Below are positions 6,777-21,768 of a DNA stretch of 63,304 bases, piece after piece (positions within the stretch are counted from its first letter, which is position 1; every line of letters starts with the position of its first letter). The stretch covers positions 1-63,304 of the forward strand of contig DATDEZ010000056.1 in the NCBI GenBank assembly GCA_036522875.1. The letters run 5' to 3'. The notes under the pieces are model-generated. The model saw only the letters and a program-made list of their open reading frames with translations. It did no database searches and was not told the DNA's origin. The translations under genes were made by a program, and so were the position numbers. The DNA is from Gemmatimonadales bacterium (GTDB taxonomy: Bacteria > Gemmatimonadota > Gemmatimonadetes > Gemmatimonadales > GWC2-71-9).

Positions 6777-7961
6777 ATGGCTTCGAAGTTCCACGGCGTG
6801 GATTTCTACAACATCGACGGCCTGCTCAGCGAAGAAGAGCGCGCGATCCGCGACACCGTTCGCGAGTGGGTCGACGACAATCTGATGCCCGTCATCGGCG
6901 AAGCGTACGTCGCCGGCAAGTTTCCCAAGCAGCTCATCCCCGGCATGGCGGAGCTCGGCCTCTTCGGCGCGAATCTCCCGGAAGAGTATGGCTGCGCGGG
7001 GCTGAATAACGTCGCGTATGGGCTGATCATGCAGGAGCTCGAGCGGGGCGATTCGGGCGTGCGGTCGTTCGCGTCGGTGCAGGGCGCGCTGGTGATGTAC
7101 CCGATCTATACCTTCGGCTCCGAGGACCAGAGAAAAAAGTGGCTGCCGCAGATGGCGAGCGGCAAAGTGATCGGGTGCTTCGGACTCACCGAGCCCGATT
7201 ACGGCTCGAACCCCGCCGGCATGATCACCGTCGCGAAGGAAACCAAAGACGGCTGGGTGCTGAACGGCGCGAAGATGTGGATCACGAACGGGTCCACCGC
7301 GCAGGTCGCGGTCGTGTGGGCGAAGACCGGCGCGCTCGATGACGCCAACGCGATCCGCGGTTTCATCGTCCCCACCGACACGAAGGGCTTCTCGGCGAAG
7401 GATCAGAAGGGCAAGCTGTCGCTGCGCGCGAGCGACACCAGCGAGCTCGTGCTCCAGGACGTCCACCTCCCGAAGGACGCCCTGCTGCCGACGTCCGGCG
7501 GCCTCAAGTCGCCGCTCATGTGTCTGACCGCGGCGCGGTACGGCATTGCGTGGGGCGCCGTCGGCGCCGCGATGGCGTGCTATGACGAAGCGGTGAGTTA
7601 CGCCAAGCAGCGCGTGATGTTCGCGAAGCCGATCGGCGGATTCCAGCTGCAGCAGGCGCGCCTCGCCGACATGCTGACCGAAATCACGAAAGCGCAGCTC
7701 CTGTGCCTGCAGCTCGGCCGGCTCAAGGACGATGGCAAATCCACACCGCAGCAGGTGAGCCTGGCGAAGCGCAACAACGTGGACATGGCGACCGACATCG
7801 CGCGCGAGACGCGGCGGCTCCTCGGCGCCAACGGTATCCTCGCCGAGTATCAGGCGATGCGCCACCTCGCGAATCTCGAATCGGTGTACACGTACGAGGG
7901 CACCCACGACATCCACACGCTGATCCTCGGCCAGGAGATCACGGGCCTGTCCGCGTTTTAG
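6777..7961 (+). CDS. gcdH: Glutaryl-CoA dehydrogenase (acyl-CoA dehydrogenase family)
   Basis: ORF 6777..7961. Motifs: GCFGLTEPDYGSNP, MWITNG, GKLSLRASDTSELVLQDV, YTYEGTHDIHTLILGQEITG. This pattern is typical of GCDH-type ACADs. Confidence 0.85.
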   Translation: MASKFHGVDFYNIDGLLSEEERAIRDTVREWVDDNLMPVIGEAYVAGKFPKQLIPGMAELGLFGANLPEEYGCAGLNNVAYGLIMQELERGDSGVRSFASVQGALVMYPIYTFGSEDQRKKWLPQMASGKVIGCFGLTEPDYGSNPAGMITVAKETKDGWVLNGAKMWITNGSTAQVAVVWAKTGALDDANAIRGFIVPTDTKGFSAKDQKGKLSLRASDTSELVLQDVHLPKDALLPTSGGLKSPLMCLTAARYGIAWGAVGAAMACYDEAVSYAKQRVMFAKPIGGFQLQQARLADMLTEITKAQLLCLQLGRLKDDGKSTPQQVSLAKRNNVDMATDIARETRRLLGANGILAEYQAMRHLANLESVYTYEGTHDIHTLILGQEITGLSAF

Positions 7962-10803
7962 CCTCGGCCGCGCGCGCCCGCGCCCGGAACGGCGCGTCGC
8001 CGTCACGCCAGGCGCTTGCCACCCACCGATACTCTATCGCCGCGCTGTCACGCTGGCCCGCGGCTTCGTACGCGCGGGCCAGCAGCTCGTGCAGCTCCGT
8101 GTGAGTGACGTAGAGATTGCTGGCTTCGAGACCGCCCCGGATTGCGGCGCCGAGCAGGGGAATGGCGTCGCGCGGCTGACCCGTCGCCACGAGATCCTGC
8201 GCCAGCAGATAGTTGATGCGTGTGTACCCGAAAGTCGGCGACGTCAGCGCCTGACGATACTCGGCGACCGCGTCGGCCGGCCGGTGCCGCGCGTCCCACA
8301 ACAGGCCGCGCGCATAGTGATACATGCGCTGGTCCCGCGCGTACCCGCTGCGGGCACCGACACGTTGCAGCGTATCGACGAGCAGCGCGACGCGCGCCGT
8401 GTCACCCGCTGCCGCGAATCCGGTGACCTCGTGCGTCAGCATCCACGTATGCTGGCGCGCCGCCTGCCCGATGCTGGTGTCGCTGAGCACCCAGCGCTGC
8501 CGCATCGAATCGAACACCGCCGCCGCCGCGAGCGGCCGGCCCGCCTCCATCAGCACGATCGCCCGCAGCAGCGGCGCGGTGCCGAGCACCCGAGTGTCGG
8601 GGTCGTGTTGGGATTCGCGCTCGTAGGCCCGCGCGGCCGTGAGCGCCTGACCGAGCTTGCCCTGCATCCGGTCGCTCAGCACCTCGAGCCAATAGCCGCC
8701 GTGCTTTTGCATTCCGGACAGCGAAGACAGGAGCGTGATCTGGCGCTTCGCCTCGTCGAAATCGCCGAGGACGAGCGCCTGTCGTGCCGCCTGATTTGCC
8801 GCCTCGATCGGCGTCGGGTTCAGGCTGTCGACCCACACCGCGAACTTCTGCCGCGCTTCGGCGGCGCGGCCCAGTCCCGCGAGCAAGAAGAACTCGCTCG
8901 GCAGCGCGCCGGCATTCGTCGGCTGCACGCTCCGCAGCCAGCGCAGCATCGCGAATTCCTGCGGCACCGAATCCATCGCGCTATAGGCGCTCAGCATTCC
9001 ATCGATCGCCAGACAGGCGCGACAGTCCCTGCCGCCAGCCGCGATGGCCGCTGAATCGAGCTCGGCGAGCCGGCGATAGAGCCGGAGCTGGCCCGGATAA
9101 TCCGCCGCCAGCCAGTGCGCGCTCCCCGCGAGCGAGTAGCCCTCGACCTCGAGTGGAAAGAACGTGATCAGGGAGTCCGCGATGGCGACCGCACCGGGAG
9201 ACTGATCCGCGATCGCCCAATACGTGCGCATTAGCAGGCGACCGTACCGATTGCCTTCGGCCGCGCCGGACCGCTCGGCGAGCGCCAGGGTTCGGCGGGC
9301 GAGCGCGCGCACGGCGGTCAGCGGAGTGCCCAGCTGCCCGCGCGTCTGCACGGCGTAGTACAGCGCGAGGACGTACGTCGAGTCCTCGTTGACCGCGAGG
9401 CCGAACAACGCGTCGGCCGCGGCGTAATCGCGGCGATAGTAGGCGCGCAGCCCGTCGTCGAAATAGCGCTGCGCCATCAGCGAGGTCGGCGCGATCTCGG
9501 CGACGCCGGTCTCGGGCACGGGCCGGCGCAGCTCGGCCGCGAGACGCGCCGTCACGCTGTCGGCCACGGCGAACGGATCGTGTCCGTGAACGATCCAGGA
9601 GCGGCGCACCGCGCCGGTGCCAAGCTCGACGAGCCGCAGATCGACGCGCCAGCCGTCGGCCTGCGGGTAGATCTCGCCTTCCACGAGGCGGTCGGCGCCC
9701 GCGAGCTTCGCGGCTCGCAACAGCGCCGCCGGCGTGAGCGCGTCACCGGCGTTGAGGTCGCCTGAGACCTCGTACAGGCGCGCGCGACTGATGACCTGCA
9801 CATCACGCACGTTGCCGAGGCCGGTGGCGATGAGCTGTGGCAGGGTTGCGGCGATGTTGGCCGAATCCGTCGGACTTTGGGCGACGAGCGCGCCGACCGC
9901 GAGCACGGGGGTCGGCGTCGAGCGGCGTGAGGCCAGGCCCCAGACCGCGAGCGCCAGGACGAGCACGGCGGCAGCGGGCCACCACCGCACGTGCACGTGG
10001 CGACGCGGCACGGCCGGTGACGACCAGCTCGCGGAATCGGCGCGCGAAGGCGGTTGCGGCGGCGAGACCGCGGGGGTCGGGCGGCGCTCACGCAGCGTCT
10101 TCACGAGACCGCGGAGCTCGGGGCTTGGCTCGACGCCGAGCTCGGCCTGGAGTCGCTTCTCGAACTCCTCGAAGCGACGCAACGCGTCCACGCGGTCGCC
10201 CGCGGCATCCAGCAATCGCAGCAACCGCGCCACTGCCCGCTCGTTCAGCGGTTGCAGTTCGAGCGCGCGCACGGCCCAGAAGCGCGCCGTCGACGCGCGC
10301 GCCGCCGCCGCTTCCTGGTCGCTCAAGCGCTCGGCCGCCGCGAATGCCGCGTCGCGATAGCGGCGCCGCGTCTGGTCGATCCACTCATCCAGCTCCGGCG
10401 CCGCGTCCGAAACGAAGAAGCCCGCGAGCAAGTCGCCGCGATACAGCGCGAGCGCGTCCGCATCTCTGCCGGCCGCGATGTGATCGAAGAACGTGGCCGC
10501 GTCGGATGTCAGCCGGTCGGCGGCGACGTCGATCTCCTCTTCGCCGCGCGTGACGATGACACCTTCGCCCAAGTGGGAGCGGAGGAAATGCAGCGTGCGC
10601 CGGAGCGAGGCGCGCGCCGGCTCGCCCGCCGTCTCCGGCCAGAACAGCGGCAGCAGGCCGTCCCGGCGGCGGAAGCCGCGTGGCTCGGCCAACGCGAGGT
10701 AGGCGAGGAGCGCGAAGCGTTTCGGCTGCGACAGGACGGGGCGGATTTCCTGCCCGTCATCCCCCGTAAGTCCCAGCGAGCCGAGCAGTTGGAGACGCAG
10801 CAT
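7939..10803 (-). CDS. Membrane-anchored one-component regulator: OmpR-type winged helix, BTAD (SARP-like), one TM helix, a periplasmic domain and TPR repeats
   Basis: C-terminal 954 aa of ORF 7939..11154, with the start at ATG 10803 (MLRLQLLGSLGL...). The winged helix includes KRFALLAYLALAEPRGFRRRDGLLPLFWPE. The BTAD part includes ALALYRGDLLAGF...ELDEWI...LQPLNERAVARLLRLLDAAGDRVDALRRFEEFEKRLQAELGVEPSPEL. The TM helix is WWPAAAVLVLALAVWGL. A long TPR-like C-terminus follows. Confidence 0.8.
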   Translation of the reverse strand: MLRLQLLGSLGLTGDDGQEIRPVLSQPKRFALLAYLALAEPRGFRRRDGLLPLFWPETAGEPARASLRRTLHFLRSHLGEGVIVTRGEEEIDVAADRLTSDAATFFDHIAAGRDADALALYRGDLLAGFFVSDAAPELDEWIDQTRRRYRDAAFAAAERLSDQEAAAARASTARFWAVRALELQPLNERAVARLLRLLDAAGDRVDALRRFEEFEKRLQAELGVEPSPELRGLVKTLRERRPTPAVSPPQPPSRADSASWSSPAVPRRHVHVRWWPAAAVLVLALAVWGLASRRSTPTPVLAVGALVAQSPTDSANIAATLPQLIATGLGNVRDVQVISRARLYEVSGDLNAGDALTPAALLRAAKLAGADRLVEGEIYPQADGWRVDLRLVELGTGAVRRSWIVHGHDPFAVADSVTARLAAELRRPVPETGVAEIAPTSLMAQRYFDDGLRAYYRRDYAAADALFGLAVNEDSTYVLALYYAVQTRGQLGTPLTAVRALARRTLALAERSGAAEGNRYGRLLMRTYWAIADQSPGAVAIADSLITFFPLEVEGYSLAGSAHWLAADYPGQLRLYRRLAELDSAAIAAGGRDCRACLAIDGMLSAYSAMDSVPQEFAMLRWLRSVQPTNAGALPSEFFLLAGLGRAAEARQKFAVWVDSLNPTPIEAANQAARQALVLGDFDEAKRQITLLSSLSGMQKHGGYWLEVLSDRMQGKLGQALTAARAYERESQHDPDTRVLGTAPLLRAIVLMEAGRPLAAAAVFDSMRQRWVLSDTSIGQAARQHTWMLTHEVTGFAAAGDTARVALLVDTLQRVGARSGYARDQRMYHYARGLLWDARHRPADAVAEYRQALTSPTFGYTRINYLLAQDLVATGQPRDAIPLLGAAIRGGLEASNLYVTHTELHELLARAYEAAGQRDSAAIEYRWVASAWRDGDAPFRARARAAEAKTRTGP

Positions 10804-10844
10804 AGGTGCCAGCCAATGGTGCGGCCGGTGGCGTGACCTGGCAA

Positions 10845-10895
10845 GGGACGCTTGGGATTCGTGGGGGACGCATGAGGGACCGGCGGGAGACGGGA
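10845..10895. promoter_or_regulatory. Six phased GGGA(C) motifs in the regulator/operon divergent promoter region; candidate operator array
   Basis: GGGA starts at 10845, 10854, 10865, 10876, 10885 and 10892, with spacings of 9, 11, 11, 9 and 7 nt. Three copies are GGGAC. All lie in the 130-nt intergenic gap 10804-10933. A GGAG Shine-Dalgarno at 10923-10926 precedes ATG 10934. Confidence 0.3.
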
Positions 10896-10933
10896 GGCGT
10901 CCAAGTTGAGCGCACCTTCTGACGGAGCGACCC

Positions 10934-11380
10934 ATGAGGCGCGTGTTCACGATGATTGCGGTGATTGTGCTGGCCGGCTGCGGAAGCTCGAGCGGTCCCG
11001 ATCCCTCGACCTGGCTCGGGACGTGGAGTGTCCAGGTCACGAATGGATCCGGCTGGCACGTGAATCCGCTGCAATACCATCTCACGCTGGTGGATTCCGC
11101 CAACGACATGTGGGCCACGGTGCCCGCCGTATCGGTCACGGACGACAACAACACCGATCCGGTGAATTTCTCTCAATTCACTGGCGTCAGGAACTACGCC
11201 GTCAGCGCGGATTCGGTCTGGCTGGGCGTCTCGGCGCAAGGCACGAACAGCGGGTTGACTTATAACCTGTTGATCCAGGGCACGCGTGCCGGCACCTCCG
11301 CGGCAGGGTCGCTGACGCTGGATCTGCAGGGCGGCGGAGGGTCATCGGTCGTCGCGACGTGGACTGCGACGAAGCAGTGA
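10934..11380 (+). CDS. Small lipoprotein, beta-rich (lipocalin-like by composition), uncharacterised
   Basis: ORF 10934..11380 has the lipobox IAVIVLAGC-GSSSG. A WLGTWSV motif lies near the N-terminus and ATWTATK at the C-terminus. Confidence 0.65.
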   Translation: MRRVFTMIAVIVLAGCGSSSGPDPSTWLGTWSVQVTNGSGWHVNPLQYHLTLVDSANDMWATVPAVSVTDDNNTDPVNFSQFTGVRNYAVSADSVWLGVSAQGTNSGLTYNLLIQGTRAGTSAAGSLTLDLQGGGGSSVVATWTATKQ

Positions 11381-13023
11381 CACCGCTGCTGCTGCTCCTG
11401 CTCACGCAGGGCGAACCGATGCCGATCACGGTGAAGGTCTCGCCGCGCATGGCGCTGCCCGGCACGCCCATCGTCTTCACCGGGACGACCGTCGCTGACG
11501 GCAAGCGCTTCGACGTCGGCATCACCGTGGTCAATCCGCAGCAGCACCCGGTGTCGGGGACGACGCGAGTCGATGCGCAGGGCAACTACACGGTCACCTT
11601 CAACGAAGCCAAGGCGCCGGGAGCGTACCGCGTCACGCTGACCGCTCCGGACGGGCGGGGCCACGACACGACGAGCTTCGTCGTGGGCGCGCCGGGCGAG
11701 TTCTCGAACGAGGCGACCGGAGCGGTCCAGCACATCACCGACGACGGCCAGGAGATCGAGCAGCACCTGGAGCAGGCGATCGAGGATCTGCCCGAGTCAC
11801 CGGCGAAGGAGCAGCTCAAAGAAAAGATGAAGGGCGTGCAGGACTCGCTGCGCGTCTCGGCCGAGCGGGCGCAGCAATTCCGGCAGGCGATGCAGAAGCT
11901 CGCCGACGTGCAGACCCGCTATCCCGAAACGGCGACGGTGCTTCACGACATGTACGTGCATCTGGGCGATGAAATCTTCCGCACCCAGGCCGAAGCCGAC
12001 GCGCGCAAGTTCGAGATCCTGCGCGAGCTCGACAATTCGCGCGCCGCCGGGGCGATCTGCGATCGACTCGAAACGATGAGCGAAGGGTTCAAGGCCGTTT
12101 CGGCGACGTTCAATCTCGCCGGCTCGCTGATGAGCGTCGTGCGCAGCTTTCTGACCGACTACGTCGCCGCGAAAGCCCCGCAGCTGCCCAACCCCGCGCT
12201 CAAGAACAATCCTGCCGGTCAGCTCGCACTCGGCGAAGCGATCAAGGGCAGCGCCGCCCTGCTCGTCTCACCCGCAGGCTGGGTCGGCTTCCTGTTCACG
12301 CTCGCCGCCGACATCGCCGCCTACTTTACCGACAAGGAGTTCGCGAAGTACTGCGAGCGCTTCGAAGGTCCGTTCAGCGCGACGATGCATGGTGAAGTGT
12401 TCCGGCAGAACGAGACATGGTGGACGATGGACATCCGCCTCGAGGGCCGGCTGACGCTGCGCTATCCGAAGGCCAAGCAGGGCGAGGCAATTCACATGAC
12501 CGGCCAGTTCGAGGGCGCCGCCACCGACTACAAGGTCTGGGAGGACGCGCTGCACGTCCTCTACCCGAAGCTCATGAACGGCACCCGCACGTTCAAGCGC
12601 GTGATCGTGCCGGTCGGGATCCCGTATTCCGACTTCGAGGGACGCTACGCCGCGCTCGCGTCACCCGCCGCGTTCATGGTGCCGGTGGAAGGCGATCTGA
12701 TCGGCCGCAAGCTCACGATCCGGCTGCAACCGGCCAAGAAAGAGATCCCGGAGACCTACCGCACGGCGCGCGTGATCGTCGCGATTCTGAGTCCGCTCGC
12801 GCTCATGCCCGTCGTGGTGAACTACCCGCTGCCGTACCAGTCGGGCGAGTTCGTGCTGAAGCACGGGCTCAGCCTCGACGACGGCCAGGACCTCGTGCTC
12901 GACATCACGGTCGGTCCGAGCTCGATGCAGGTGCAGCGCGACTTTCAGCACGACAAGCCGGGTGACGGCGTGAAGGCCCACTACACCGGGAGCCTGCGGC
13001 TATGCAACCCGTCCTGCCAATAG
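11377..13023 (+). CDS. Uncharacterised ~548-aa protein: N-terminal Ig-like beta domain, a long helical/coiled-coil region with a hydrophobic hairpin, and a C-terminal beta domain
   Basis: ORF 11359..13023. GTG 11377 overlaps the upstream stop as GTGA; ATG 11419 is an alternative start. The Ig-like part reads PIVFTGTTVADGKRFDVGITVVNP...GNYTVTFNEAKAPGAYRVTLTAPDG. The helical part reads EQHLEQAIEDLPESPAKEQLKEKMKGVQDSL... The hydrophobic segment is AALLVSPAGWVGFLFTLAADIAAYF. The protein ends in CNPSCQ. I recognise no family. Confidence 0.6.
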   Translation: MTPLLLLLLTQGEPMPITVKVSPRMALPGTPIVFTGTTVADGKRFDVGITVVNPQQHPVSGTTRVDAQGNYTVTFNEAKAPGAYRVTLTAPDGRGHDTTSFVVGAPGEFSNEATGAVQHITDDGQEIEQHLEQAIEDLPESPAKEQLKEKMKGVQDSLRVSAERAQQFRQAMQKLADVQTRYPETATVLHDMYVHLGDEIFRTQAEADARKFEILRELDNSRAAGAICDRLETMSEGFKAVSATFNLAGSLMSVVRSFLTDYVAAKAPQLPNPALKNNPAGQLALGEAIKGSAALLVSPAGWVGFLFTLAADIAAYFTDKEFAKYCERFEGPFSATMHGEVFRQNETWWTMDIRLEGRLTLRYPKAKQGEAIHMTGQFEGAATDYKVWEDALHVLYPKLMNGTRTFKRVIVPVGIPYSDFEGRYAALASPAAFMVPVEGDLIGRKLTIRLQPAKKEIPETYRTARVIVAILSPLALMPVVVNYPLPYQSGEFVLKHGLSLDDGQDLVLDITVGPSSMQVQRDFQHDKPGDGVKAHYTGSLRLCNPSCQ

Positions 13024-14093
13024 TCTTCGCGCTGGCAGTGCAGCAGATCCCGCTCCAGGCCGGGATGACGCTCACCTACGTGCACCGGAACTTCGATCGC
13101 AACCGCGACGACGAGATCCGAACCTGGATCGTGCGCATGACCGGCGAGGAATCGGTCTGGAACGCGGAGTGGGTCGCCAATCCGTGCCCGGGCCCCGAGG
13201 ACCACATGTCGCGGCGCGAGCAGCTCGGCGCGCGCAGCATGGATTTCGCGCGCGGCGGCACCGCCGATCAGACGGTCGCGGAGCACCGGCCGCACACGCT
13301 CTACATGCTGTCCGCCCGGCTGCTGCGCGGCCTCCGCGAGGGCGAGACGATGGACATGATCGTCCCGGTTCTCGCCAACGCGGAAATCATCCTCGGCGGG
13401 TCGTCCGACACCACGACGGGCCGCTGCAAGATGCCTCAGATGGTCCTGCAGCTCGTGCGCGGACAGGCGCAGCGCGTCGGCAACGACACGACGGAGACGG
13501 TGATCGTCGATGGACGCGGCATGACCGTGCCGATCATGCGCGTCCACGCGGACTTCGTCAGCCTGATCGACCAGCTGCGCATCCAGGGCGACATGTGGTT
13601 CGTCGACGACACCGCGGCCGCGTGGGTCACGCGCGTCGAGATGACGCGGCAGGACCAGCGGACGTTCCACATGGCGCTCGGGACGATCACGACCCCGGTG
13701 CCGGGAAGCGCGATCGAACGCCAGCTCGCCGATTCGTGCCGCGCGCCCGTGTACGGCTTCTACTTCGCGTTCAACAGCGCGACGCTCGACGCCGCGTCGC
13801 AGCCCACGTTCACGGCGGTCGCCGACCTGCTCGGCCGGCATCCCGACTGGACGCTGGCGATCGAAGGACACACTGACTCGATCGGCGATCCTGCGACGAA
13901 CCTGAAGCTGTCCGATCGCCGCGCCAACGCCGTGCGCCAGGAGCTGCTGGGCCATTACGGCGTCGCGGCGCCGCGTCTGACGGCGGCGGGACGCGGGATG
14001 GCCGGCTACGTCGCCCCAAACAACACGCTCGAGGGCCGCGCGCGGAATCGCCGCGTCGACCTCGTGCGCCGCTGTGGAGGCTCTCCCCCATGA
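13002..14093 (+). CDS. OmpA-family (peptidoglycan-binding C-terminal domain) protein with a novel ~250-aa N-terminal domain
   Basis: ORF 13002..14093. The C-terminus reads FAFNSATLDAASQPTFTAVADLLGRHPDWTLAIEGHTDSIGDPATNLKLSDRRANAVRQELL...GRARNRRVDL, the canonical OmpA_C/MotB motif. The N-terminal signal is MQPVLPIVFALAV. It overlaps the upstream gene by 22 nt. Confidence 0.8.
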   Translation: MQPVLPIVFALAVQQIPLQAGMTLTYVHRNFDRNRDDEIRTWIVRMTGEESVWNAEWVANPCPGPEDHMSRREQLGARSMDFARGGTADQTVAEHRPHTLYMLSARLLRGLREGETMDMIVPVLANAEIILGGSSDTTTGRCKMPQMVLQLVRGQAQRVGNDTTETVIVDGRGMTVPIMRVHADFVSLIDQLRIQGDMWFVDDTAAAWVTRVEMTRQDQRTFHMALGTITTPVPGSAIERQLADSCRAPVYGFYFAFNSATLDAASQPTFTAVADLLGRHPDWTLAIEGHTDSIGDPATNLKLSDRRANAVRQELLGHYGVAAPRLTAAGRGMAGYVAPNNTLEGRARNRRVDLVRRCGGSPP

Positions 14094-15175
14094 AAATGCT
14101 CGTGATGTGTTTGATGGTGATCGGTGCAGCCTGCTCGAGCCAGGCGAGGTCTGCCGCAAGTGATGCGAAGGATCCCTGTCGACTGGTCAGCCGCGCCGAA
14201 GCAGAGCGGATCCTCGGCGGGGGTCCCCTGCGCCACGATCCGTTCCGCGTCTCGAGCGGCGGCAATCGCGTTCCCAACCCCACCGGCAGCGCCTGTTTCT
14301 TCGAAGCGCGGAACGGCCGTCGCGTGATCATGGACGTGGATTGGACGGACGGACGCGCGGGCATGAAGATCGTCGGAATGATGGGCAGTCTGGTGGAGCA
14401 GGTCATCTCGACCGACTCGGGACAGGCCGACACACTCGACGCGCACTGGGACGAGCTGCGGATGCTGCCGGGGAGCAATCTCTATGCCCGCAAAGGCGAT
14501 CAGCTCGTCCAGCTCGATTACAACGGCTCGCGCATCGGCCTGATCGGTGCCGCGACATTCGCGAACATCGCGCTCGATCGCATGGCCAGCGGTCATCTTC
14601 TGACGTATGATGGCGCGGCGGCGGGCCGGACGGCCCCGGGGCCGATCGTGACGCCGGGCGATCCGTGCGGCCTGATTGCGCAGGCGGATTTCGAGCGGAT
14701 CGTCGGGCCGTTGGCGCAGAAGCCGAAGGCGGGACCGCATGGCGACGACTGCACGTACACGCTGGCGCAGTCGCGCGGCCTCGCCGGCAGTGACGTCGTC
14801 TTGCGGATCTTCTGGAAAGACGGTTGGGCCGCGATCGATCAGTCGGGATCGGCGGTTCGCAATGTCGTGGCGCACGTCGCCCCGCCGATGGCGCAAGGCT
14901 CGGCCGGCGCGCAGAGCGGCGATCAGAGCGTCGGCGGCTTCATGAACAAGATCATGAACGTCGCGCGGTCGCAGGGCGTCGGCGTCCAGACCGACGCGAA
15001 CGGCGGGCTGAAGAGCGATACCGCGGTGGCCGGACCGTGGGACGCCGGCTTCCTGAATATGGGTTTGGGTTTTTCCGTCGTGAAGGACGATGCAATGCTG
15101 TCGCTGGATCTTCGAGGGATCACGTACGAGCAGGCGAAAGCGCTGCTCGCCAAGGCAGTCGAGCGAATTCCATGA
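14090..15175 (+). CDS. Lipoprotein with an internally duplicated DPC...ERI(L/V)G module
   Basis: ORF 14090..15175 has the lipobox MVIGAAC-SSQ. DPCRLVSRAEAERILGG (aa 28-44) is echoed by DPCGLIAQADFERIVGP (aa 191-207). Each copy is followed by a second Cys about 30-40 residues later. It has an ATGA overlap with the OmpA-like gene. Confidence 0.65.
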   Translation: MKMLVMCLMVIGAACSSQARSAASDAKDPCRLVSRAEAERILGGGPLRHDPFRVSSGGNRVPNPTGSACFFEARNGRRVIMDVDWTDGRAGMKIVGMMGSLVEQVISTDSGQADTLDAHWDELRMLPGSNLYARKGDQLVQLDYNGSRIGLIGAATFANIALDRMASGHLLTYDGAAAGRTAPGPIVTPGDPCGLIAQADFERIVGPLAQKPKAGPHGDDCTYTLAQSRGLAGSDVVLRIFWKDGWAAIDQSGSAVRNVVAHVAPPMAQGSAGAQSGDQSVGGFMNKIMNVARSQGVGVQTDANGGLKSDTAVAGPWDAGFLNMGLGFSVVKDDAMLSLDLRGITYEQAKALLAKAVERIP

Positions 15176-15909
15176 GGAGGCGGAAGATGAAGACGAACGT
15201 GGCAATGGCGCTGGCCGTGCTGGCAGCGGCGATGTGTCCACTCACCGCGCACGCGCAGGGAGCGTTCGAAGGAACGGTGAACGGGACGATGACGGCGGAC
15301 GGAAAGGCGATCCCGTTCCGCTACTCGCAGCTCGGCAGCCGCATCCGGACGGAGTACACGATGGAAGGGCACAACGTCGCGTCGATCTACGACGCGACGA
15401 CCGGCGACATGACGTACATCATGCCCGAGCAGAAGAAATACATGATCTGGAACATGCGTGCGTCGAGCGGGATGGCGCGACAGATGGCGAATGCGATGGC
15501 CGGTCGCGGGCGCGACGCGCCGGACTGGTCCAAGATGAAGGTGACGCCCACGGGCCAGCGCGAAACGATCGCCGGAATTGCCTGCGAGCACTATCTGTTC
15601 GAGAACGCGGATGACCAGCAAAAGCATCACGCGCTCGACATGTGCGGCGCCAGCGGCCTCGGCTTCATGGGAATGGCCGGACAGACGAAATCGATGATGC
15701 CGTCCACGATCGCCATGCTGCGGTCCCAGAATCCCGAGATGGCGAAGCTGGCGCGACAGGGGTTCTTCCCGCTCAAGATGAGCATGACCGAAGAGCACGG
15801 CAGCTTCGTGTGGACCGTGACGCAGATCGAGCGCGGCCGTCCCGCGGCCGCACTGTTCCAGCCGCCGGCCGGCTACGAGGAGCTCAAGATGCCGAGTGCC
15901 CACGACTAG
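15172..15909 (+). CDS. Secreted protein, DUF4412-like
   Basis: C-terminal 245 aa of ORF 14824..15909, with the start at ATG 15172 (ATGA overlap). The signal peptide is KTNVAMALAVLAAAMCPLTAHAQG. The GAFEGTVNGTMTADGKAIPFRY...YIMPEQKKYMIW pattern resembles DUF4412, but the family call is tentative. Confidence 0.55.
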   Translation: MRRRKMKTNVAMALAVLAAAMCPLTAHAQGAFEGTVNGTMTADGKAIPFRYSQLGSRIRTEYTMEGHNVASIYDATTGDMTYIMPEQKKYMIWNMRASSGMARQMANAMAGRGRDAPDWSKMKVTPTGQRETIAGIACEHYLFENADDQQKHHALDMCGASGLGFMGMAGQTKSMMPSTIAMLRSQNPEMAKLARQGFFPLKMSMTEEHGSFVWTVTQIERGRPAAALFQPPAGYEELKMPSAHD

Positions 15910-15945
15910 GGAGAAACCCGGGTCGCCTGCGTCCGTAGGACAGCC

Positions 15946-17703
15946 ATGACGTTCGCCCTCCTCGTGGCTCTCCTTCAGACGCAGGCTGCAACACCGTTGG
16001 TCCAGATTCAGAACCTCACCCCTCGTGAGCAGCGGGTTAGCACGTTCGTCTTGCCGCGCGCCCAGGATCTCACGATCTCCGCCGTCGGCGCCGAGCCATG
16101 GCCGGACCGGCTGCGGAGCCGCGGTGACCGCGGTTGGCAGGACGACGAGCAGACGACCTGGCCCGCGGCCGCGTGGATTCTCGATGCGCGGACGCGGGCC
16201 GTCGTCTGGGATCTGCGCGCCGTCGAAACGCGGCGCGAATCGAACGGGCTACGGCATTTCGACGGCACGATTCACTTGCCCGCGGGAACGTACGAAACCC
16301 ATTACGCGTCGTATCCGGCGGCCACCGTGTCGCTCAACGGCGGCATCCAACTCAACGATTTACGTGATCTCATCCGGCTCGGCCGCCGCGTCAGCTATGG
16401 CGGGCCGTACGTCGAGAATGATCTGTACAAGCAGTTCGCGCTGAGCATCACCGGCGTCGGCCGAGCGGCCACGGACAGCGACATGGCGGTCGCCCATACG
16501 GCGTTCGCCGCCTCCATTGTGACGACCGTCGTGCCGGAGCGGAACAACTCCGCCCGCCAAGGTTTCGAGCTCACCCGGCCCACCACGGTCGAAGTGACTG
16601 CGATCGGTGAGCTCGGCCTCGATCGCGACTTCGATTACGGCTGGATCATCGATGCCGCCACCCGCAAGCGTGTGTGGACGATGACCTACGACGGCAGCGA
16701 GCCGGCGGGCGGGGCCGCAAAGAATCGCATCGCGCATGAAACATTGCACCTCAAGCCCGGCCGCTACGTCGCGTACTTTCTCTGTGACGACTCGCACGAT
16801 CCCGAAGACTGGAACGGCGTGCCACCCACGGATCCCGCGTCCTGGGGTCTCACGCTCCGCGTGGCCGACGCGGCCGCGCGGGCCGCCGTCAAGCTCTTCG
16901 ATTACGAGCCGGTGCCCGCCGGGCAGACCATCGTGTCGTTCACCGGTGTTGGAAACGACGAGGATCGCGCGCAGGGCTTCCGGCTGAACCACGCGATGGA
17001 CGTTCGCATCTTCGCCCTCGGCGAGGGGCGGAACGACCAGATGAACGACTACGCCTGGATCGCGAACGCCGATACCCACAAGCGGGTCTGGACGATGCGG
17101 TACGAGGATACGGAGGATGCGGGCGGGACGGAGAAAAACCGGTTGTACGACAGCGTTCTCCACCTCGCGATCGGCAACTACGTCGTGCATTACCGAAGCG
17201 ACGGCTCGCATTCCTACAATGATTGGAACGGCGCGCCGCCGGCGGATGGAAAGTACTGGGGCGTGAGCGTCTTTCCCGCGAGCGGCCGGCTCAACCCCGG
17301 CGACGTCGGACCGCTCGAGCGAAGAGCCGGCATGGGAGCACCACTGGCCCAGCTGACGCACATGGGCAACGACGAGAACGCGAGCCTGCAATTTCAGCTG
17401 ACGGCCGAGACGCGCGTGCGCGTGTATGCCGAGGGCGAAGGGCGCGACGGCTCGATGTTCGACTTCGGCTGGATCGAATCGGCCGACGGGACCCGGGTTT
17501 GGGAAATGCGGTACGCCGACACCGAGCCCGCCGGCGGCGACGACAAGAATCGCGTGGTCGACGGATCGGTCACGCTCCCGCCGGGGAGCTACACCCTGCA
17601 TTACCAGTCCGACGGCTCGCATTCCTACAACGATTGGAATGCCGACGCTCCCGACGACCCCGACGGATGGGGCATCTCCGTGTTCCGATTGGGGAATCGG
17701 TAG
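15946..17703 (+). CDS. Secreted protein built from four tandem ~138-aa repeats of an unrecognised domain
   Basis: ORF 15946..17703 has the signal MTFALLVALLQTQAA. The W-I dipeptide of the core motif falls at aa 77, 233, 371 and 509. The consensus is D(Y/F)(G/A)WI..A.T..RVW.M.Y.D.E.AGG..KNR.......L..G.Y..HY.SDGSHSYNDWN..P.D...WG. Confidence 0.7.
   Translation: MTFALLVALLQTQAATPLVQIQNLTPREQRVSTFVLPRAQDLTISAVGAEPWPDRLRSRGDRGWQDDEQTTWPAAAWILDARTRAVVWDLRAVETRRESNGLRHFDGTIHLPAGTYETHYASYPAATVSLNGGIQLNDLRDLIRLGRRVSYGGPYVENDLYKQFALSITGVGRAATDSDMAVAHTAFAASIVTTVVPERNNSARQGFELTRPTTVEVTAIGELGLDRDFDYGWIIDAATRKRVWTMTYDGSEPAGGAAKNRIAHETLHLKPGRYVAYFLCDDSHDPEDWNGVPPTDPASWGLTLRVADAAARAAVKLFDYEPVPAGQTIVSFTGVGNDEDRAQGFRLNHAMDVRIFALGEGRNDQMNDYAWIANADTHKRVWTMRYEDTEDAGGTEKNRLYDSVLHLAIGNYVVHYRSDGSHSYNDWNGAPPADGKYWGVSVFPASGRLNPGDVGPLERRAGMGAPLAQLTHMGNDENASLQFQLTAETRVRVYAEGEGRDGSMFDFGWIESADGTRVWEMRYADTEPAGGDDKNRVVDGSVTLPPGSYTLHYQSDGSHSYNDWNADAPDDPDGWGISVFRLGNR
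16558..17700 (+). repeat. Three well-conserved in-frame 414-nt (138-aa) tandem coding repeats; a fourth, diverged copy lies upstream at about 16045-16400
   Basis: The DYGWI, DYAWI and DFGWI motifs are spaced exactly 138 aa apart (aa 230, 368, 506). The KNR and DWN(G/A) motifs repeat with the same period, with a 1-residue deletion in the last copy. Confidence 0.7.
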
Positions 17704-17720: not shown

Positions 17721-18473
17721 ATGAAAATCGCGGTCTGCATCAAGCGCGTGCCCGATTCGGAGACACGCGTCAAAATCGGGTCCGACCGGAAAAGCCTGGA
17801 CGAGGGCGGCGTGAAGTTCGTCATGAACCCATATGACGAGTTCGCTGTCGAAGAGGCGCTGCGGCGGAAAGAGAAAGCGGGAACAGGTGAGGTTGTCGTC
17901 CTGAGCCTGGGTCCCGCGGCGGCGCAGGAGACGATTCGCACGGCGCTCGCGATGGGCGCCGACCGCGGCGTGTTGCTGCAAACCGACAAGATCCCCGCCG
18001 ATCCCTTTGAATCCGCCAAACTCATCGCGGCCGCCCTGAAGTCCGACACCTGGGACCTGATCTTGTTCGGCCGCATGGCCATCGACGACTACAACCATCA
18101 GGTCGGCGTCATCGTCGCCGAGCTGCTCGGACTGCCGTGTGTGAGCGCGGTGTCGCACCTCGATATCGACGGCACGAAGGGAGTTGCCGAGCGCGAGATC
18201 GAGGGCGGCATCGAGGTGGTCGAGTTCCCGCTGCCCGCGCTGCTCACGGTTGACAAGGGACTCAATGAGCCGCGCTATCCCGCGCTCAAAGGCATCATGG
18301 CGGCGAAGAAGAAGCCGCTCGAGCTGAAACGCGTGGAGCCGGGAGCCGGGAGTCTGGAGCTCCTGGCGCTGACGCTGCCCCCCGAGCGAAAAGAAGGGAA
18401 GATCGTTGGCGAAGGAGCCGCGGCCGTGCCGGAGCTGGTACGACTGCTGCGCGAGGAGGCGAAGGTTCTGTGA
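17721..18473 (+). CDS. etfB: Electron transfer flavoprotein, beta subunit
   Basis: ORF 17721..18473. Motifs: MKIAVCIKRVPD, VKFVMNPYDEFAVEEALR, GADRGVLL, GRMAIDDYNHQVG. Confidence 0.9.
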   Translation: MKIAVCIKRVPDSETRVKIGSDRKSLDEGGVKFVMNPYDEFAVEEALRRKEKAGTGEVVVLSLGPAAAQETIRTALAMGADRGVLLQTDKIPADPFESAKLIAAALKSDTWDLILFGRMAIDDYNHQVGVIVAELLGLPCVSAVSHLDIDGTKGVAEREIEGGIEVVEFPLPALLTVDKGLNEPRYPALKGIMAAKKKPLELKRVEPGAGSLELLALTLPPERKEGKIVGEGAAAVPELVRLLREEAKVL

Positions 18474-19348
18474 CCAAGGTCCTCGCCGTACTCGAGCAAC
18501 GTGACGGCGCGTTGCGTAAAGTGTCGTTCGAAGTGGTGACCGCCGCGCGACGACTCGGCACCGCGGTCGATGCGGTGGTCTGCGGCGGAACCGGTCCCGA
18601 AGGCTGCGCGACCGCGGTGGCGGAACGCGCGAGATCGGGGAGCTATGACGCCGTTGTCTTCGCCGCCACCGCCACGGGAAAGGACATCGCCCCGCGTGTC
18701 GCCGCGAAGCTCGGCGTCGCCGTCGCGGCGGACGTGACCGACCTGGCGATCGACGGCGGCAAGATCGTCGCCACACGACCCGTGTACGCCGGCAAGGCGT
18801 TGCAACGGGTCGCCGTGCTCGGCACGCCGGCCGTGATTTCCATCCGTCCCAACATCTTCACGGCCGACGCGCAGGCGTCGCAAGTAAAGCCGGAGACGCT
18901 GTCCGTCGCGTCACCGGGCCGAGTCGTCATGCGCGAGATCAAGGCCGCGCCCGCGGGCATGCTGGATGTGGCCGAGGCAGCGGTGATCATCTCGGGCGGC
19001 CGCGGTCTCAAGGAGCCGGCGAACTTCAAAGTGCTGGAAGAGCTCGCGGGGGCGTTTGGCGGCAAGGCGGCCGTGGGCGCCTCGCGCGCGGTCGTGGACG
19101 CGGGCTGGCGCGCGCACGCCGACCAGGTCGGCCAGACCGGCAAGACGGTGAGTCCTTCGCTCTACATCGCGGTGGGCATCTCGGGCGCGATTCAGCATCT
19201 CGCCGGCATGCGCACGTCGAAGGTCATCGTCGCGATCAACAAGGACAAAGACGCGCCAATCTTCAAAGTCGCCGACTACGGCGTCGTGGGCGACTTGTTC
19301 GAGATCGTGCCGAAGCTCACCGAAGAAATCCGCAAGCTCCATGGATAG
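18470..19348 (+). CDS. etfA: Electron transfer flavoprotein, alpha subunit
   Basis: ORF 18470..19348. The FAD-binding C-terminus reads IISGGRGL...LAGAFGGKAAVGASRAVVDAGW...QVGQTGKTVSPSLYIAVGISGAIQHLAGM...IVAINKD. It has a GTGA-type overlap with etfB. Confidence 0.9.
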   Translation: MTKVLAVLEQRDGALRKVSFEVVTAARRLGTAVDAVVCGGTGPEGCATAVAERARSGSYDAVVFAATATGKDIAPRVAAKLGVAVAADVTDLAIDGGKIVATRPVYAGKALQRVAVLGTPAVISIRPNIFTADAQASQVKPETLSVASPGRVVMREIKAAPAGMLDVAEAAVIISGGRGLKEPANFKVLEELAGAFGGKAAVGASRAVVDAGWRAHADQVGQTGKTVSPSLYIAVGISGAIQHLAGMRTSKVIVAINKDKDAPIFKVADYGVVGDLFEIVPKLTEEIRKLHG

Positions 19349-20972
19349 TCAGTTCGTCCCGGCCACGTACCAGCCGGCGCTCCCGCTCAAGCAGCTCATC
19401 ATCGCGGAAGGGTCGGACGGCGCGGGCGATCGCATGGAGCTCGACGTGCTGATTGTCGGCGCCGGTCCGGCCGGCCTCGCGTGCGCCATCGAGCTCGCGA
19501 AGCTCGCAAAGGCCGACGGCACCGAGCTGAACATCGCCGTACTCGAAAAGGCCGAGGCGCTCGGCGAGCACTCGCTGTCGGGTGCGGTCGTAAACCCGCG
19601 CGCGTTCCGCGAGCTGTTTCCCGACTTGAAGGACCAGGACTTTCCGTTTCGAGGACCGGTGTCGAAGGAAGCGGTCTACGTCCTGACCGCTGGAGGCAAA
19701 TGGCGGCTGCCGACGCCCCCGTCGATGCGCAATCACGGGAACTACATCGCCTCGCTGTGCGAGATCGTCCGCTGGCTCGGCGGCAAGGCCGAGGAGCTCG
19801 GCGTCAACGTCTTCACCGGATTCCCGGCGGCGCAGCTCTTGGCGCGGGGCGGGGCGGTGGCGGGCGTTCGCACGGCGGCGGCCGGCCTGGACCGCGACGG
19901 TCAAGCGACCGCCGGCGGCACGGCTCCCAACGACCTGGTCGCGAAAGTCACGGCCCTCGCGGAGGGGACGCGCGGCCTCCTCACGCAGGCCTGGTGCCAG
20001 TGGCAGCGCGTGGGATCCGAGAATCCGCAGATCTTCGCGCTCGGCGTGAAGGAGCTGTGGGAGACGAAACAGCCGCTCGACCGCGTGATGCACACGCTCG
20101 GCTGGCCGCTGCCGCGCGACGTGTTCGGCGGCAGCTTCGTCTATCCACTCGAGCCGCATCTCGTCGCGCTCGGACTCGTCGTCGGTCTCGATTATCGTGA
20201 CGCCGGCCTCGACGTGCACGGTCTGGTGCAGCGCTTCAAGCAGCATCCGCTGATCGCGCCGCTGCTCGCGGGGGGTGAAATGGTCGAGTGGGGCGCCAAG
20301 ACCATCCCCGAAGGCGGTTATTACGCGCTGCCGCAGCGCCGCTCGGGCGATGGCGTCGTGCTCCTCGGCGATGCAGCGGGATTCGTCGACGTGCCCTCGC
20401 TCAAAGGGATCCACTACGCCATGCAGTCCGGCATGAGCGCGGCGCGGGCGATCTTCGAGCACGTAAAGCGTGGTGCGGCGCTCAGCGAGTACGACCGCGC
20501 GGTGAATGCGTCGTACATCGCCGCCGATCTCTATCGGACTCGCAACATGCGGCTCGCCTTCCGTGACGGGTTCTATCTCGGCGGTATTCAGGCGGGTTTG
20601 ATGACGCTCACTGGCGGCCGATTTCCGGGCGGCCGGTACCGGATGCACGCGGACGCGGCTGCGGCGCGAAGCATCCCGGCGCACGCGGAGCCGATGACGG
20701 GCGTCAGCAAGGTCGATGCCGTGTTCAAGTCGGGGAACGCGACGCGCGACACGATTCCCAACCACCTGATCGCCAATCCCGACGTGCCGGCCGCCGTGGC
20801 GCGCTTCTACGGGCACATGTGCCCGGCGGGTGTCTACGAAGCGGGGGAACACGGAGGGGGGGGCCTGCGCATCAACGCCCCCAACTGTGTCGACTGCAAG
20901 GCCACCGACGTGCTGGGTCCGCGTTGGACGCCGCGTGAAGGCGGCAGCGGACCTAAGTACAAGCGGATGTAG
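19341..20972 (+). CDS. Electron transfer flavoprotein-quinone oxidoreductase (ETF-QO)
   Basis: ORF 19341..20972. It has the FAD motif DVLIVGAGPAGLACA and GDAAGFVDVPSLKGIHYAMQSG. The C-terminal 4Fe-4S region reads CPAGVYE...NAPNCVDCKATDV...WTPREGGSGPKY. Confidence 0.9.
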   Translation: MDSQFVPATYQPALPLKQLIIAEGSDGAGDRMELDVLIVGAGPAGLACAIELAKLAKADGTELNIAVLEKAEALGEHSLSGAVVNPRAFRELFPDLKDQDFPFRGPVSKEAVYVLTAGGKWRLPTPPSMRNHGNYIASLCEIVRWLGGKAEELGVNVFTGFPAAQLLARGGAVAGVRTAAAGLDRDGQATAGGTAPNDLVAKVTALAEGTRGLLTQAWCQWQRVGSENPQIFALGVKELWETKQPLDRVMHTLGWPLPRDVFGGSFVYPLEPHLVALGLVVGLDYRDAGLDVHGLVQRFKQHPLIAPLLAGGEMVEWGAKTIPEGGYYALPQRRSGDGVVLLGDAAGFVDVPSLKGIHYAMQSGMSAARAIFEHVKRGAALSEYDRAVNASYIAADLYRTRNMRLAFRDGFYLGGIQAGLMTLTGGRFPGGRYRMHADAAAARSIPAHAEPMTGVSKVDAVFKSGNATRDTIPNHLIANPDVPAAVARFYGHMCPAGVYEAGEHGGGGLRINAPNCVDCKATDVLGPRWTPREGGSGPKYKRM

Positions 20973-20973
20973 C

Positions 20974-21768
20974 TTAGGGCTGCGGGCGAGCCGGATCGGT
21001 ATTTCGGAAATACTGGCGCGCCTTCTCCGCCAGCTGCGACATCGACATCGGCAGGTTGCGCGTCACCCACAGCATCGTGCGTTGTCCGCTCGGGAAGCGG
21101 CGCGCGCCGTCCTGACGCGTCACGCCCGCCATCTGCGTGAGCGAAATCCCAAAGATCTCCTTGCTGGCGCGATCGAGGGCGGCGCCGAACTGCTCATCGT
21201 CGGGCGTGCCGAGGATGTCGGAGTGCGTGCGGCCGAGCTCTTCGAGCGGTGTGTTGTACGCCTCTTCGCACTGCGTGTCCATCAGGAATCCGCAGTACAG
21301 CGCGAACTGGTAACTCTCTGCCAGCTGGTTCCAGAGCTCCTCGATGCGGATCGCCGCCTCGGTTCTCCCGGTCCGCCACAAGAGTCCCGCGACGTCGGAG
21401 TAGATGCGCGTGCCGCGCCCGTACGGCTGTATCCGCAGCAGCACGGGGCCGAGCGAGGCGCGGAATCGCGACCAGTCGGGCAAGCCGTCGGCGAGGAACT
21501 CATCGACTATTTTCCCGGCGTCCATGAGGGCGAGCTGGCCCGAGTTGGTCAGCGCCTTCGAGTGCAGCTTGTTGGCGGTCAGGCGATCGAGCAGCTGGTC
21601 GAGGTGCTCGCGCTCGACGATGATGAGGACGCTTTCGCCGCGGCGCAGCCCCGCTTCGAGGAAGTCGAACGCTGATTCGACGAGGCTCCCGGCCTGGCGG
21701 TGGAATTGCGCGAGATGACGCCCGGCGGGCGCCTCGGCCAGCAACGCACGACCGGGGGGCGCTGACAC
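20974..21768 (-). CDS. MEDS-domain protein, paralog 2
   Basis: ORF 20974..21768, starting at GTG. It shows the MEDS-like pattern HLAQFHRQAGSLVESAFDFLEAGLRRGESVLIIV, then a conserved C-terminal extension containing RFPSGQRTMLWV. It aligns end to end with the upstream paralog. Confidence 0.65.
   Translation of the reverse strand: MSAPPGRALLAEAPAGRHLAQFHRQAGSLVESAFDFLEAGLRRGESVLIIVEREHLDQLLDRLTANKLHSKALTNSGQLALMDAGKIVDEFLADGLPDWSRFRASLGPVLLRIQPYGRGTRIYSDVAGLLWRTGRTEAAIRIEELWNQLAESYQFALYCGFLMDTQCEEAYNTPLEELGRTHSDILGTPDDEQFGAALDRASKEIFGISLTQMAGVTRQDGARRFPSGQRTMLWVTRNLPMSMSQLAEKARQYFRNTDPARPQP

Follow-up and report, generated by a model that had tools for sequence, protein, structure and literature searches.

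The closest described relatives of the system reported here are the SARPs (Streptomyces antibiotic regulatory proteins; AfsR, EmbR, DnrI, ActII-ORF4), soluble cytoplasmic regulators of actinomycete secondary-metabolite clusters in which an N-terminal OmpR-type winged helix-turn-helix (wHTH) is followed by a BTAD domain, large members such as AfsR also carrying tetratricopeptide repeats (TPRs). Their target promoters have direct repeats, 11 or 22 bp apart, just 5′ of the −10 element and in place of the −35, and about 8 bp separate the 3′ repeat from the −10 (PMC10936776). Here we analyse a 63,304-nucleotide stretch of Gemmatimonadales DNA (contig DATDEZ010000056.1, “the window”; G+C about 67%), in which a regulator with the same wHTH and BTAD domains faces six plus-strand genes, g1 to g6 (Table 1), across a promoter of the same layout. 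It differs from the SARPs in being membrane-anchored, with its repeat region outside the cytoplasm and without an NOD/ATPase or FHA domain; in its host, which is Gemmatimonadales rather than an actinomycete; in its target, which is an envelope operon and not a biosynthetic cluster; and in a repeat core of GGGAC rather than of the TCGAG type. Our overall reading, to which we give a probability of roughly 0.6, is that the locus encodes a periplasmic complex, inducible and tethered to peptidoglycan, which is controlled by an envelope sensor dedicated to it. With high confidence, the gene unit is g1–g5, and its conserved core is g2, g3, and g4, a widespread and uncharacterised trio.

Other described systems share single parts of this arrangement. 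ToxR and CadC likewise tether a wHTH by one transmembrane helix to a periplasmic sensor; the window regulator adds to this the BTAD domain and a repeat-built sensor of about 660 residues, and its partner genes are divergent, not co-transcribed, and unrelated to ToxS or VtrC. In PknS/EcfK, a transmembrane kinase with periplasmic TPRs phosphorylates a sigma factor of the extracytoplasmic function (ECF) group ECF43, and three of the stretches that we compared with the window (numbered L001 and so on; here L001, L022, and L032) resemble PknS/EcfK and PknT/EcfP in having a PF07638 ECF sigma factor and a Pkinase-transmembrane-TPR protein beside the trio (PMC13147305). The likeness is one of architecture; the window itself has no such pair, and the known targets of the two systems (type VI secretion and the polymyxin response) are unrelated to g2-g4.

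The Pal/OmpA anchors (Tol-Pal, YiaD, YfiB) are matched by the C-terminus of g3, a full OmpA_C domain that, among NCBIfam families, comes closest to the anchor lipoproteins YiaD and PA1041. Compared with Pal, g3 lacks a lipobox, a TolQRAB/CpoB context, and any β-barrel signature, and its N-terminal 250 residues occur only in OmpA proteins linked to g2. Finally, the DUF3558 lipoproteins of Actinomycetes, small Cys-containing modules of about 130–190 residues and of unknown function, were reported in 2026 as enriched in the SigM/ESX-4 regulon of Mycobacterium abscessus, where an operon of exported proteins stands under an envelope-type regulator much as it does here (PMC13491425). The matches of g4 to this family (PF12079) are weak and recurrent, that of the window protein reaching 21.0 bits against a cutoff of 34.1 (E 3.5e-4); in contrast to the actinomycete proteins, g4 is a tandem duplication, belongs to another phylum, and has no ESX context.

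Regulator and divergent promoter

The BTAD domain of the regulator is recognised by Pfam at E 4.5e-16 (59.9 bits against a cutoff of 22.1), residues 5–245 align to EmbR (2fez) over both the wHTH and the BTAD domain (phmmer, E 5e-4), and a single hydrophobic transmembrane segment follows. An earlier note, made from the letters of the window, had read the protein in just this way and had added a periplasmic domain and TPRs; the winged helix, BTAD domain, and single membrane helix stand, while the TPR matches of the window protein are weak (TPR_Slam 0.0025, TPR_19 0.32), and PDB sequence and profile searches with the periplasmic segment gave nothing useful. Orthologues 46–84% identical lie divergent from g2 clusters in L008–L010, L012, L029, L036, L064, and L088. 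The nearest public relative of the window is L010, a contig from a Gemmatimonadales metagenome-assembled genome (DATJKA010000131), in which g2 is 93% identical. Homology of the juxtamembrane periplasmic domain to the sensors of L133 and L003 (described below) or to CsgG-like lipoproteins is not claimed, as HMMER iterations stayed within the close orthologues. Short CsgG-family lipoproteins (216–247 residues) are found beside g2/g3-type genes in the distant loci L006 (7561–8211) and L075 (3117–3860) only; by eye their pattern resembles the juxtamembrane segment of the transmembrane TPR proteins, for which HMMER gave no confirmation.

The regulator and g1 are separated by a divergent spacer of 130 bp, in which a conserved box, four repeats in exact 11-bp phase, and a −10-like hexamer follow one another on the operon strand (Table 1). 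The triple repeat occurs once in the 63 kb of the window, against an expected 0.01, and the fourth in-phase copy is found at one mismatch. From the last repeat to the hexamer there are 10 nt counted from the GAC core, or 8 nt counted from the 7-mer GAGACGG, a sequence geometry that agrees with the published repeat spacing of SARP promoters. When the window is aligned with L010, L012, L029, L036, L064, and L088, conservation extends to the box, the GGAC cores, and two letters of the hexamer, A2 and T6, which stand at the two best-conserved positions of the bacterial −10 element. The box is also present in L034, L048, and L072 (nine related loci in all), and L008, whose regulator is 46% identical, has GGGAC-N6-CGGAC-N6-GGGAC and then, after 10 nt, TAGGCT, so that the promoter element is conserved in ten related loci. 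It accompanies the regulator even though the first downstream gene varies between g1, a large secreted protein, another lipoprotein, and, in L034, g2. The hexamer of L012 and L029 lies 6 nt 5′ of the ATG, which implies a leaderless message.

Because this layout fits the published SARP rule, we predict that the regulator activates the plus-strand operon directly, and we regard this as likely. The earlier note had tied the regulator to these genes, and conservation of the repeat promoter together with the regulator across relatives argues in the same direction. Within the operon, a simple scanner found no terminator and no σ70-consensus promoter.

Table 1. Positions of the features of the locus (nucleotides of the window unless residues or another locus are named).
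Feature	Position	Strand	Remarks
Acyl-CoA dehydrogenase (ACAD)	6777–7961		upstream of the regulator–g5 block
Regulator	7939–10803	minus	
Regulator, wHTH + BTAD	residues 1–~250		
Regulator, transmembrane segment	residues 272–292		
Regulator, extracytoplasmic region			~660 residues, TPR-like helical repeats
Conserved box	10833–10850	plus	GTGACCTGGCAAGGGACG = GTGACCTNGCAAGGGACG
Repeat GGGAT	10854	plus	exact 11-bp phase
Repeat GGGAC	10865	plus	exact 11-bp phase
Repeat GGGAC	10876	plus	exact 11-bp phase
Repeat GAGAC	10887	plus	exact 11-bp phase
−10-like hexamer CAAGTT	10902–10907	plus	
GGAG	10924–10927		6 nt 5′ of g1 ATG
g1	10934–11380	plus	
g2	11377–13023	plus	
g2, immunoglobulin (Ig)-like domain	residues 16–103		seven-strand sandwich
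g2, six-helix bundle	residues 106–325		
g2, β-rich domain	residues 326–543		
g3	13002–14093	plus	
g3, novel N-terminal domain			~250 residues
g3, OmpA-type peptidoglycan-binding domain	residues 254–350		
g4	14090–15175	plus	
g5	15172–15909	plus	
g6	15946–17703	plus	
Electron transfer flavoprotein (ETF) β, ETFα, ETF-ubiquinone oxidoreductase (ETF-QO)	17721–20972		downstream of g6
g4-g3 fusion	L023 4277–5965; L084 420–2108; L086 5477–7165		few kb from g2 homologue

The g2-g3-g4 trio

The signature protein of the trio is g2. Its AlphaFold model, built from 18 sequences (predicted local distance difference test, pLDDT, 80), has an Ig-like sandwich, a bundle of six helices of 18–42 residues each, and a β-rich domain with three strands of 18–19 residues, in agreement with the Ig, helical, and β parts that the earlier note had distinguished. 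Searched against 1.84 billion cluster representatives, a g2 profile matches 1112 proteins at E<1e-3, of which 287 reach E<1e-30; the family thus comprises hundreds of 50%-identity clusters, and most of its members are 540–630 residues long. Every name that the sources give to them is “hypothetical protein,” and the 287 clusters at E<1e-30 have no Pfam domain beyond Ig-type N-terminal domains, which are matched weakly at the N-terminus of window g2. C228 and C326 are conserved in 99% of the sequences, and a C-terminal CNPxC (Cys543/547) in about 84%.

Foldseek against the PDB gave no match for g2 at E ≤ 0.001; the confident local matches (probability about 1.0) are Ig-like, the matches in BFVD are to Ig domains only, and the PDB profile search likewise found only the Ig domain. 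The larger alignments are to the omptins Pla/pOmpT (probability 0.5–0.8) with TM-scores of at most 0.21. Clear signal peptides, which like all export signals of g1–g6 were judged by eye, are present in most g2 homologues, while the leader in the window and in L010 (MTPLLLLLLTQGEP, region 11359–11420) falls short of them by about 10 residues and contains no basic residue. The short leader coincides with the absence of f9, a second small lipoprotein gene and paralogue of g1, which lies between g1 and g2 in L029 and L094 and is absent from the window.

The OmpA domain that had been recognised in g3 is matched by Pfam (PF00691) over the full model, positions 1–98, at E 1.4e-17 (64.2 bits against a cutoff of 27.2). 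The domain in front of it has no Pfam and no PDB match and is homologous among the g2-linked OmpA proteins, and the leader is short and hydrophobic, without a charged n-region or lipobox. In g4, which has a lipobox-type GAAC, the reported duplication is real: the two halves align at a score of 80 against 31±5 for shuffles, and the AlphaFold model (pLDDT 77) has two α/β modules. DUF3558 is weakly matched in 7/16 g4-type modules, and PF12079 is precomputed for most homologues. Profile and PDB searches with g4 and its modules gave nothing useful, and Foldseek gave weak matches to Dip2269 (probability 0.8, TM-score 0.49) and then to TM1622, PsbP, and TiME, which we take as a lead toward a PsbP/Mog1-like sandwich and not as an established fold. 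In one lineage, a natural fusion of 562 residues joins a lipoprotein signal, one g4 module, the g3 N-terminal domain, and an OmpA domain in a single protein (Table 1). Of all the observations, this one hints most strongly at a physical cooperation of g3 and g4.

The earlier note had taken the products for envelope proteins that fit no named envelope system, and both statements hold after Pfam, NCBIfam, PDB, and Foldseek searches. No product scores above an NCBIfam cutoff, the anchor-lipoprotein scores of g3 being far below; for Tol-Pal in particular, g3 reaches 54 bits with TIGR02802 Pal against a cutoff of 125, and no Tol genes lie in the flanks of the window or in the related loci. Signature components of the Lpt, Bam, T9SS, and curli systems have no Pfam or NCBIfam match above cutoff in any product, and the PorE- and TssL-type matches cover the OmpA domain only, again far below cutoff.

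The trio was followed with a degenerate DNA pattern of the YCExFxGP motif. The pattern was selective, with about 91 of the 116 metagenome stretches that it gave encoding g2 relatives; 61 distinct g2 loci remained after removal of near-duplicates, and “nearby” means within four genes of g2. A g3-type OmpA protein is nearby in 27/61 loci and a g4-type module in 28/61. Where at least 2.5 kb is available on both sides (15 loci), g3 is found in 10, g4 in 7, and either in 11. The trio co-occurs even where g2 is only 26–42% identical to window g2, with one or two modules in the g4-type partner depending on the locus, and g2-g3-g4, g4-g3-g2, and g3-g4-g2 are all found, an order variation that argues for selection on co-occurrence.

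Distant g2 loci have signalling proteins of several kinds beside them: BTAD proteins near g2 in L008 and L030, OmpR/CadC-type wHTH-transmembrane-TPR proteins in L037, L117, L130, and L133 (true Trans_reg_C-transmembrane-TPR proteins in L037 and L133), and Pkinase-transmembrane-TPR proteins in L001, L003, L008, L022, L032, and L109. The sensor of the L133 wHTH protein and that of the L003 kinase are 31% identical over 355 residues. What these neighbours have in common is a single membrane pass combined with TPRs outside the cytoplasm, and a protein of this kind lies within four genes of g2 in 7–8 of the 15 well-flanked loci. Genes of this type look enriched near g2; they are frequent in these phyla, and chance adjacency is not negligible.

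Block boundaries and accessory genes

All seven open reading frames of the earlier note are present, as are the junctions it had listed: a GTGA overlap at 11377 (g1/g2), a 22-nt overlap from 13002 to 13023 (g2/g3; also kept in L012), ATGA overlaps at 14090 (g3/g4) and 15172 (g4/g5), and a 36-nt gap between g5 and g6 (15909 to 15946). Four-nucleotide overlaps are common in the relatives too. The regulator and g1–g5 (7939–15909) form a block of about 8 kb, carried by only a few percent of lineages, inside a conserved ACAD/ETF gene cluster; the genes on its two sides are thus related in function. What had been presented as a six-gene unit is thereby reduced to five genes with a core of three; tested for co-conservation, the trio holds together in variable order, g1 and g5 are found only in close relatives, and g6 drops out.

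The last gene, g6, is a resident of the conserved Gemmatimonadales cluster ACAD-g6-ETFβ-ETFα-ETF-QO and stands outside the g1–g5 module, because in genomes without the block genes it normally lies between ACAD and ETFβ. This adjacency is seen in L013–L015 (g6 at 10001–11749), three long contigs without g2, which read SDR-IDH-DUF4139-phosphoesterase-ACAD-g6-ETFβ-ETFα-ETFQO with spacers of 35 and 17 nt. More than 760 g6 homologues, all of about 580 residues and, where named by the source, all from Gemmatimonadales/Gemmatimonadota, compare with 27 for g2 in the same kind of search. The spacer 5′ of window g6 is recognisable as the native ACAD-g6 spacer, and the inserted block ends on its right side at g6. 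Both in the window and in L010 the block lies between ACAD and g6, and in L012, L029, and L050 between g6 and ETFβ, the order in L012 and L029 being ACAD-g6-regulator(−)-…-g2-g3-g4-g5-ETFβ. The block of the window has no mobility genes and no GC or GC3 (third codon position) anomaly, and no obvious target duplications are seen around it in the comparison with L012 and L029.

Several smaller observations concern these surroundings. The orientation of the block is unchanged at both positions (window 7939–15909 against L012 3234–14952 and L029), and at both g6 and ETFβ keep their native spacers. The ACAD and regulator genes are convergent, their 3′ ends overlapping by 23 nt (7939–7961), and compared with genomes that lack the block, the C-terminus of ACAD is slightly different. 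The g6 product has about 582 residues in four β-rich repeats with the motif SDGSHSYNDWNxxPPxDxxxWG; as had been noted, the repeats are real when set against shuffles, repeats 2–4 being 45–50% identical to one another and repeat 1 divergent (score 89 against 29±5). Its leader is short, hydrophobic, and uncharged, sequence and profile searches gave no Pfam and no PDB match, and it is odd to find a repeat protein that is putatively exported within a β-oxidation/ETF cluster. Downstream of ETF-QO lie two adjacent, paralogous minus-strand reading frames of about 262 residues (20974–21768 and 21772–22560), of which the second, the one that was scanned, has a MEDS domain; L015 has a MEDS gene at the same position.

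The flanking genes g1 and g5 are lineage-specific accessories. A small lipoprotein with the lipobox LAGC, g1 has orthologues confined to close Gemmatimonadales loci, and g5, with a classical signal peptide, is present in L010, L011, L012, L048, and L050 only among the loci compared. The DUF4412-like fold assigned earlier to g5 is a Pfam match (PF14371) over the whole model, 1–191 of 191, at E 1e-17 (65 bits, above the curated cutoff of 21.6), and PDB searches with g5 gave nothing useful. Five of the six products had been credited with a signal peptide or lipobox: by eye this stands for g1, g4, and g5, while g2, g3, and g6 have short uncharged leaders.

Relatives carry further genes that are absent from the window. 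The ~150-residue, single-module g4-like (DUF3558-like) gene f10 lies between g4 and g5 in L010 (~13780–14250), L012 (13778–14230), L048, and L050, where the window has a direct ATGA junction, and a large secreted protein also lies between regulator and g2. In L012 (6194–8950) and L029 (f22, about 821 residues) the first gene after the SARP-type promoter encodes a secreted protein of about 820–920 residues with, by eye, a papain-like Cys-protease motif (QNPRGTCFAFAA) and Ig-like repeats. The window operon looks like a streamlined derivative: because relatives carry extra genes there, the overlaps of g1 with g2 and of g4 with g5 may have arisen when genes between them were lost, or the relatives may have gained genes.

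Proposed mechanism, rivals, and meaning

For the inducible, tethered complex that we favour, we envisage that an envelope signal would act on the extracytoplasmic helical-repeat domain of the regulator, upon which the cytoplasmic SARP module would bind the four 11-bp-phased GGGAC-type repeats in place of a −35 element and recruit RNA polymerase to the −10-like hexamer 10 nt downstream. The genes g1–g5 would then be expressed as one translationally coupled transcript and their products exported. Through its OmpA domain g3 would be the peptidoglycan tether; g4, probably an outer-membrane lipoprotein, would offer two DUF3558-like adaptor modules and work with the N-terminal domain of g3; and g2 would be the specific component, as payload or as scaffold. 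Contact with the TPR-type sensor, whether as feedback or as co-sensor, is probable for at least one of the products. On balance we expect g2, g3, and g4 to form a physical complex; its role as an envelope stress/remodelling module, rather than as co-sensor or effector, we put forward only tentatively.

A number of findings weigh against this picture. The leaders of window g2 and g3, short and without a charged n-region, make export of these copies uncertain, and neither for g2 nor for the N-terminal domain of g3 does any match in fold or sequence point to a biochemical activity. CAAGTT is a poor −10 match, to a consensus that may not be that of Gemmatimonadota. About one third of the well-flanked g2 loci (e.g., L004, L041, L073, L089) have neither g3 nor g4, and g4-type proteins also occur away from g2 (L134). 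It follows that g2 can work alone or with distant partners, and the association of the three genes, as judged from the loci compared, appears strong and not obligate.

The rival explanations differ in what they make of g6, of the sensors, and of g2 itself. A single co-evolved assembly of all six genes, with g6 a true subunit, would be suggested by the position of g6 on the same strand 36 nt after g5 with no terminator-like site found between them by the simple scanner, and transcription that starts at the g1 promoter could plausibly run on into g6 and the ETF genes; yet more than 760 lineages have g6, compared with about 20 g2 clusters of the Gemmatimonadales type, and g6 lies between ACAD and ETFβ where the block is absent. 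In L012 and L029, moreover, it precedes the regulator, and the 36-nt spacer is the native ACAD-g6 spacer. This assembly is largely refuted already, and we consider it very improbable. That the trio is mainly a sensory accessory, capturing an envelope-derived ligand and presenting it to the TPRs of the membrane-spanning regulator or kinase in the manner of ToxS/VtrC-type partners or of RcsF-OmpA, is a more serious proposal, since the trio accompanies transmembrane TPR proteins with differing outputs (BTAD, CadC-like wHTH, Ser/Thr kinase with ECF sigma factor). Furthermore, several DUF3558 proteins are annotated PknH- or PknB-like in one table (PMC13491425). However, it is the operon itself that the SARP-type promoter would drive, as expected of an output or a feedback, such partners are usually co-transcribed with their regulator and not divergent from it, and no ligand-binding fold was identified in the g4 Foldseek and PDB searches; we think this explanation unlikely.

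Further removed is the possibility that g2 is a secreted, membrane-active effector resembling α-helical pore-formers, with g4 as chaperone and g3 as anchor or immunity-like partner. It draws on the long amphipathic helices around a hydrophobic helical hairpin (residues 292–313) in window g2 and on the M. abscessus DUF3558 proteins, which are co-expressed with ESX-secreted substrates and have been proposed as chaperones or effectors (PMC13491425). The hydrophobicity of the hairpin, however, is not conserved in the alignment with distant members, for which reason a pore-former is not favoured, Foldseek against the PDB gave no pore-forming toxin, and so no ClyA-, Cry-, or colicin-type match, and no secretion-system genes flank the compared g2 loci, so that we rate it improbable. 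Mere juxtaposition of hypothetical envelope genes without a common function, with the repeats serving only autoregulation of the regulator, is about as hard to believe: every product is of unknown function, and a motif between divergent genes could serve either, but the trio co-occurs in varied order at g2 identities of 26–42%, the g4-g3 fusion exists, and the repeats point to the operon and lie at a SARP-like distance from the −10-like hexamer, which is on the strand of the operon.

Soil phyla such as Gemmatimonadota and Acidobacteriota are, to our knowledge, rich in TPR receptor kinases and in membrane-anchored SARP/BTAD-TPR proteins, and almost none of these is known to have an assigned target. 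Here, such a regulator can be linked to a specific promoter, with its 11-bp-phased repeat array, and to a regulon, which provides a tractable and testable model outside the actinomycete antibiotic clusters in which SARPs are usually studied. Correcting the unit from six genes to five, with a core of three, avoids a mis-designed knockout or co-expression. The conserved envelope trio, with two members lacking any family annotation and beside three kinds of transmembrane signalling protein, is a candidate new envelope module. It is conceivable, though doubtful, that g2-g3-g4 is an unrecognised, widespread, peptidoglycan-anchored periplasmic complex and the dedicated partner of single-pass TPR envelope sensors whatever their output. 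If true, this would be a new modular envelope-signalling/response system built on two domains without annotated relatives, with SARP, CadC-like wHTH, and Ser/Thr kinase plus ECF sigma factor as its outputs.

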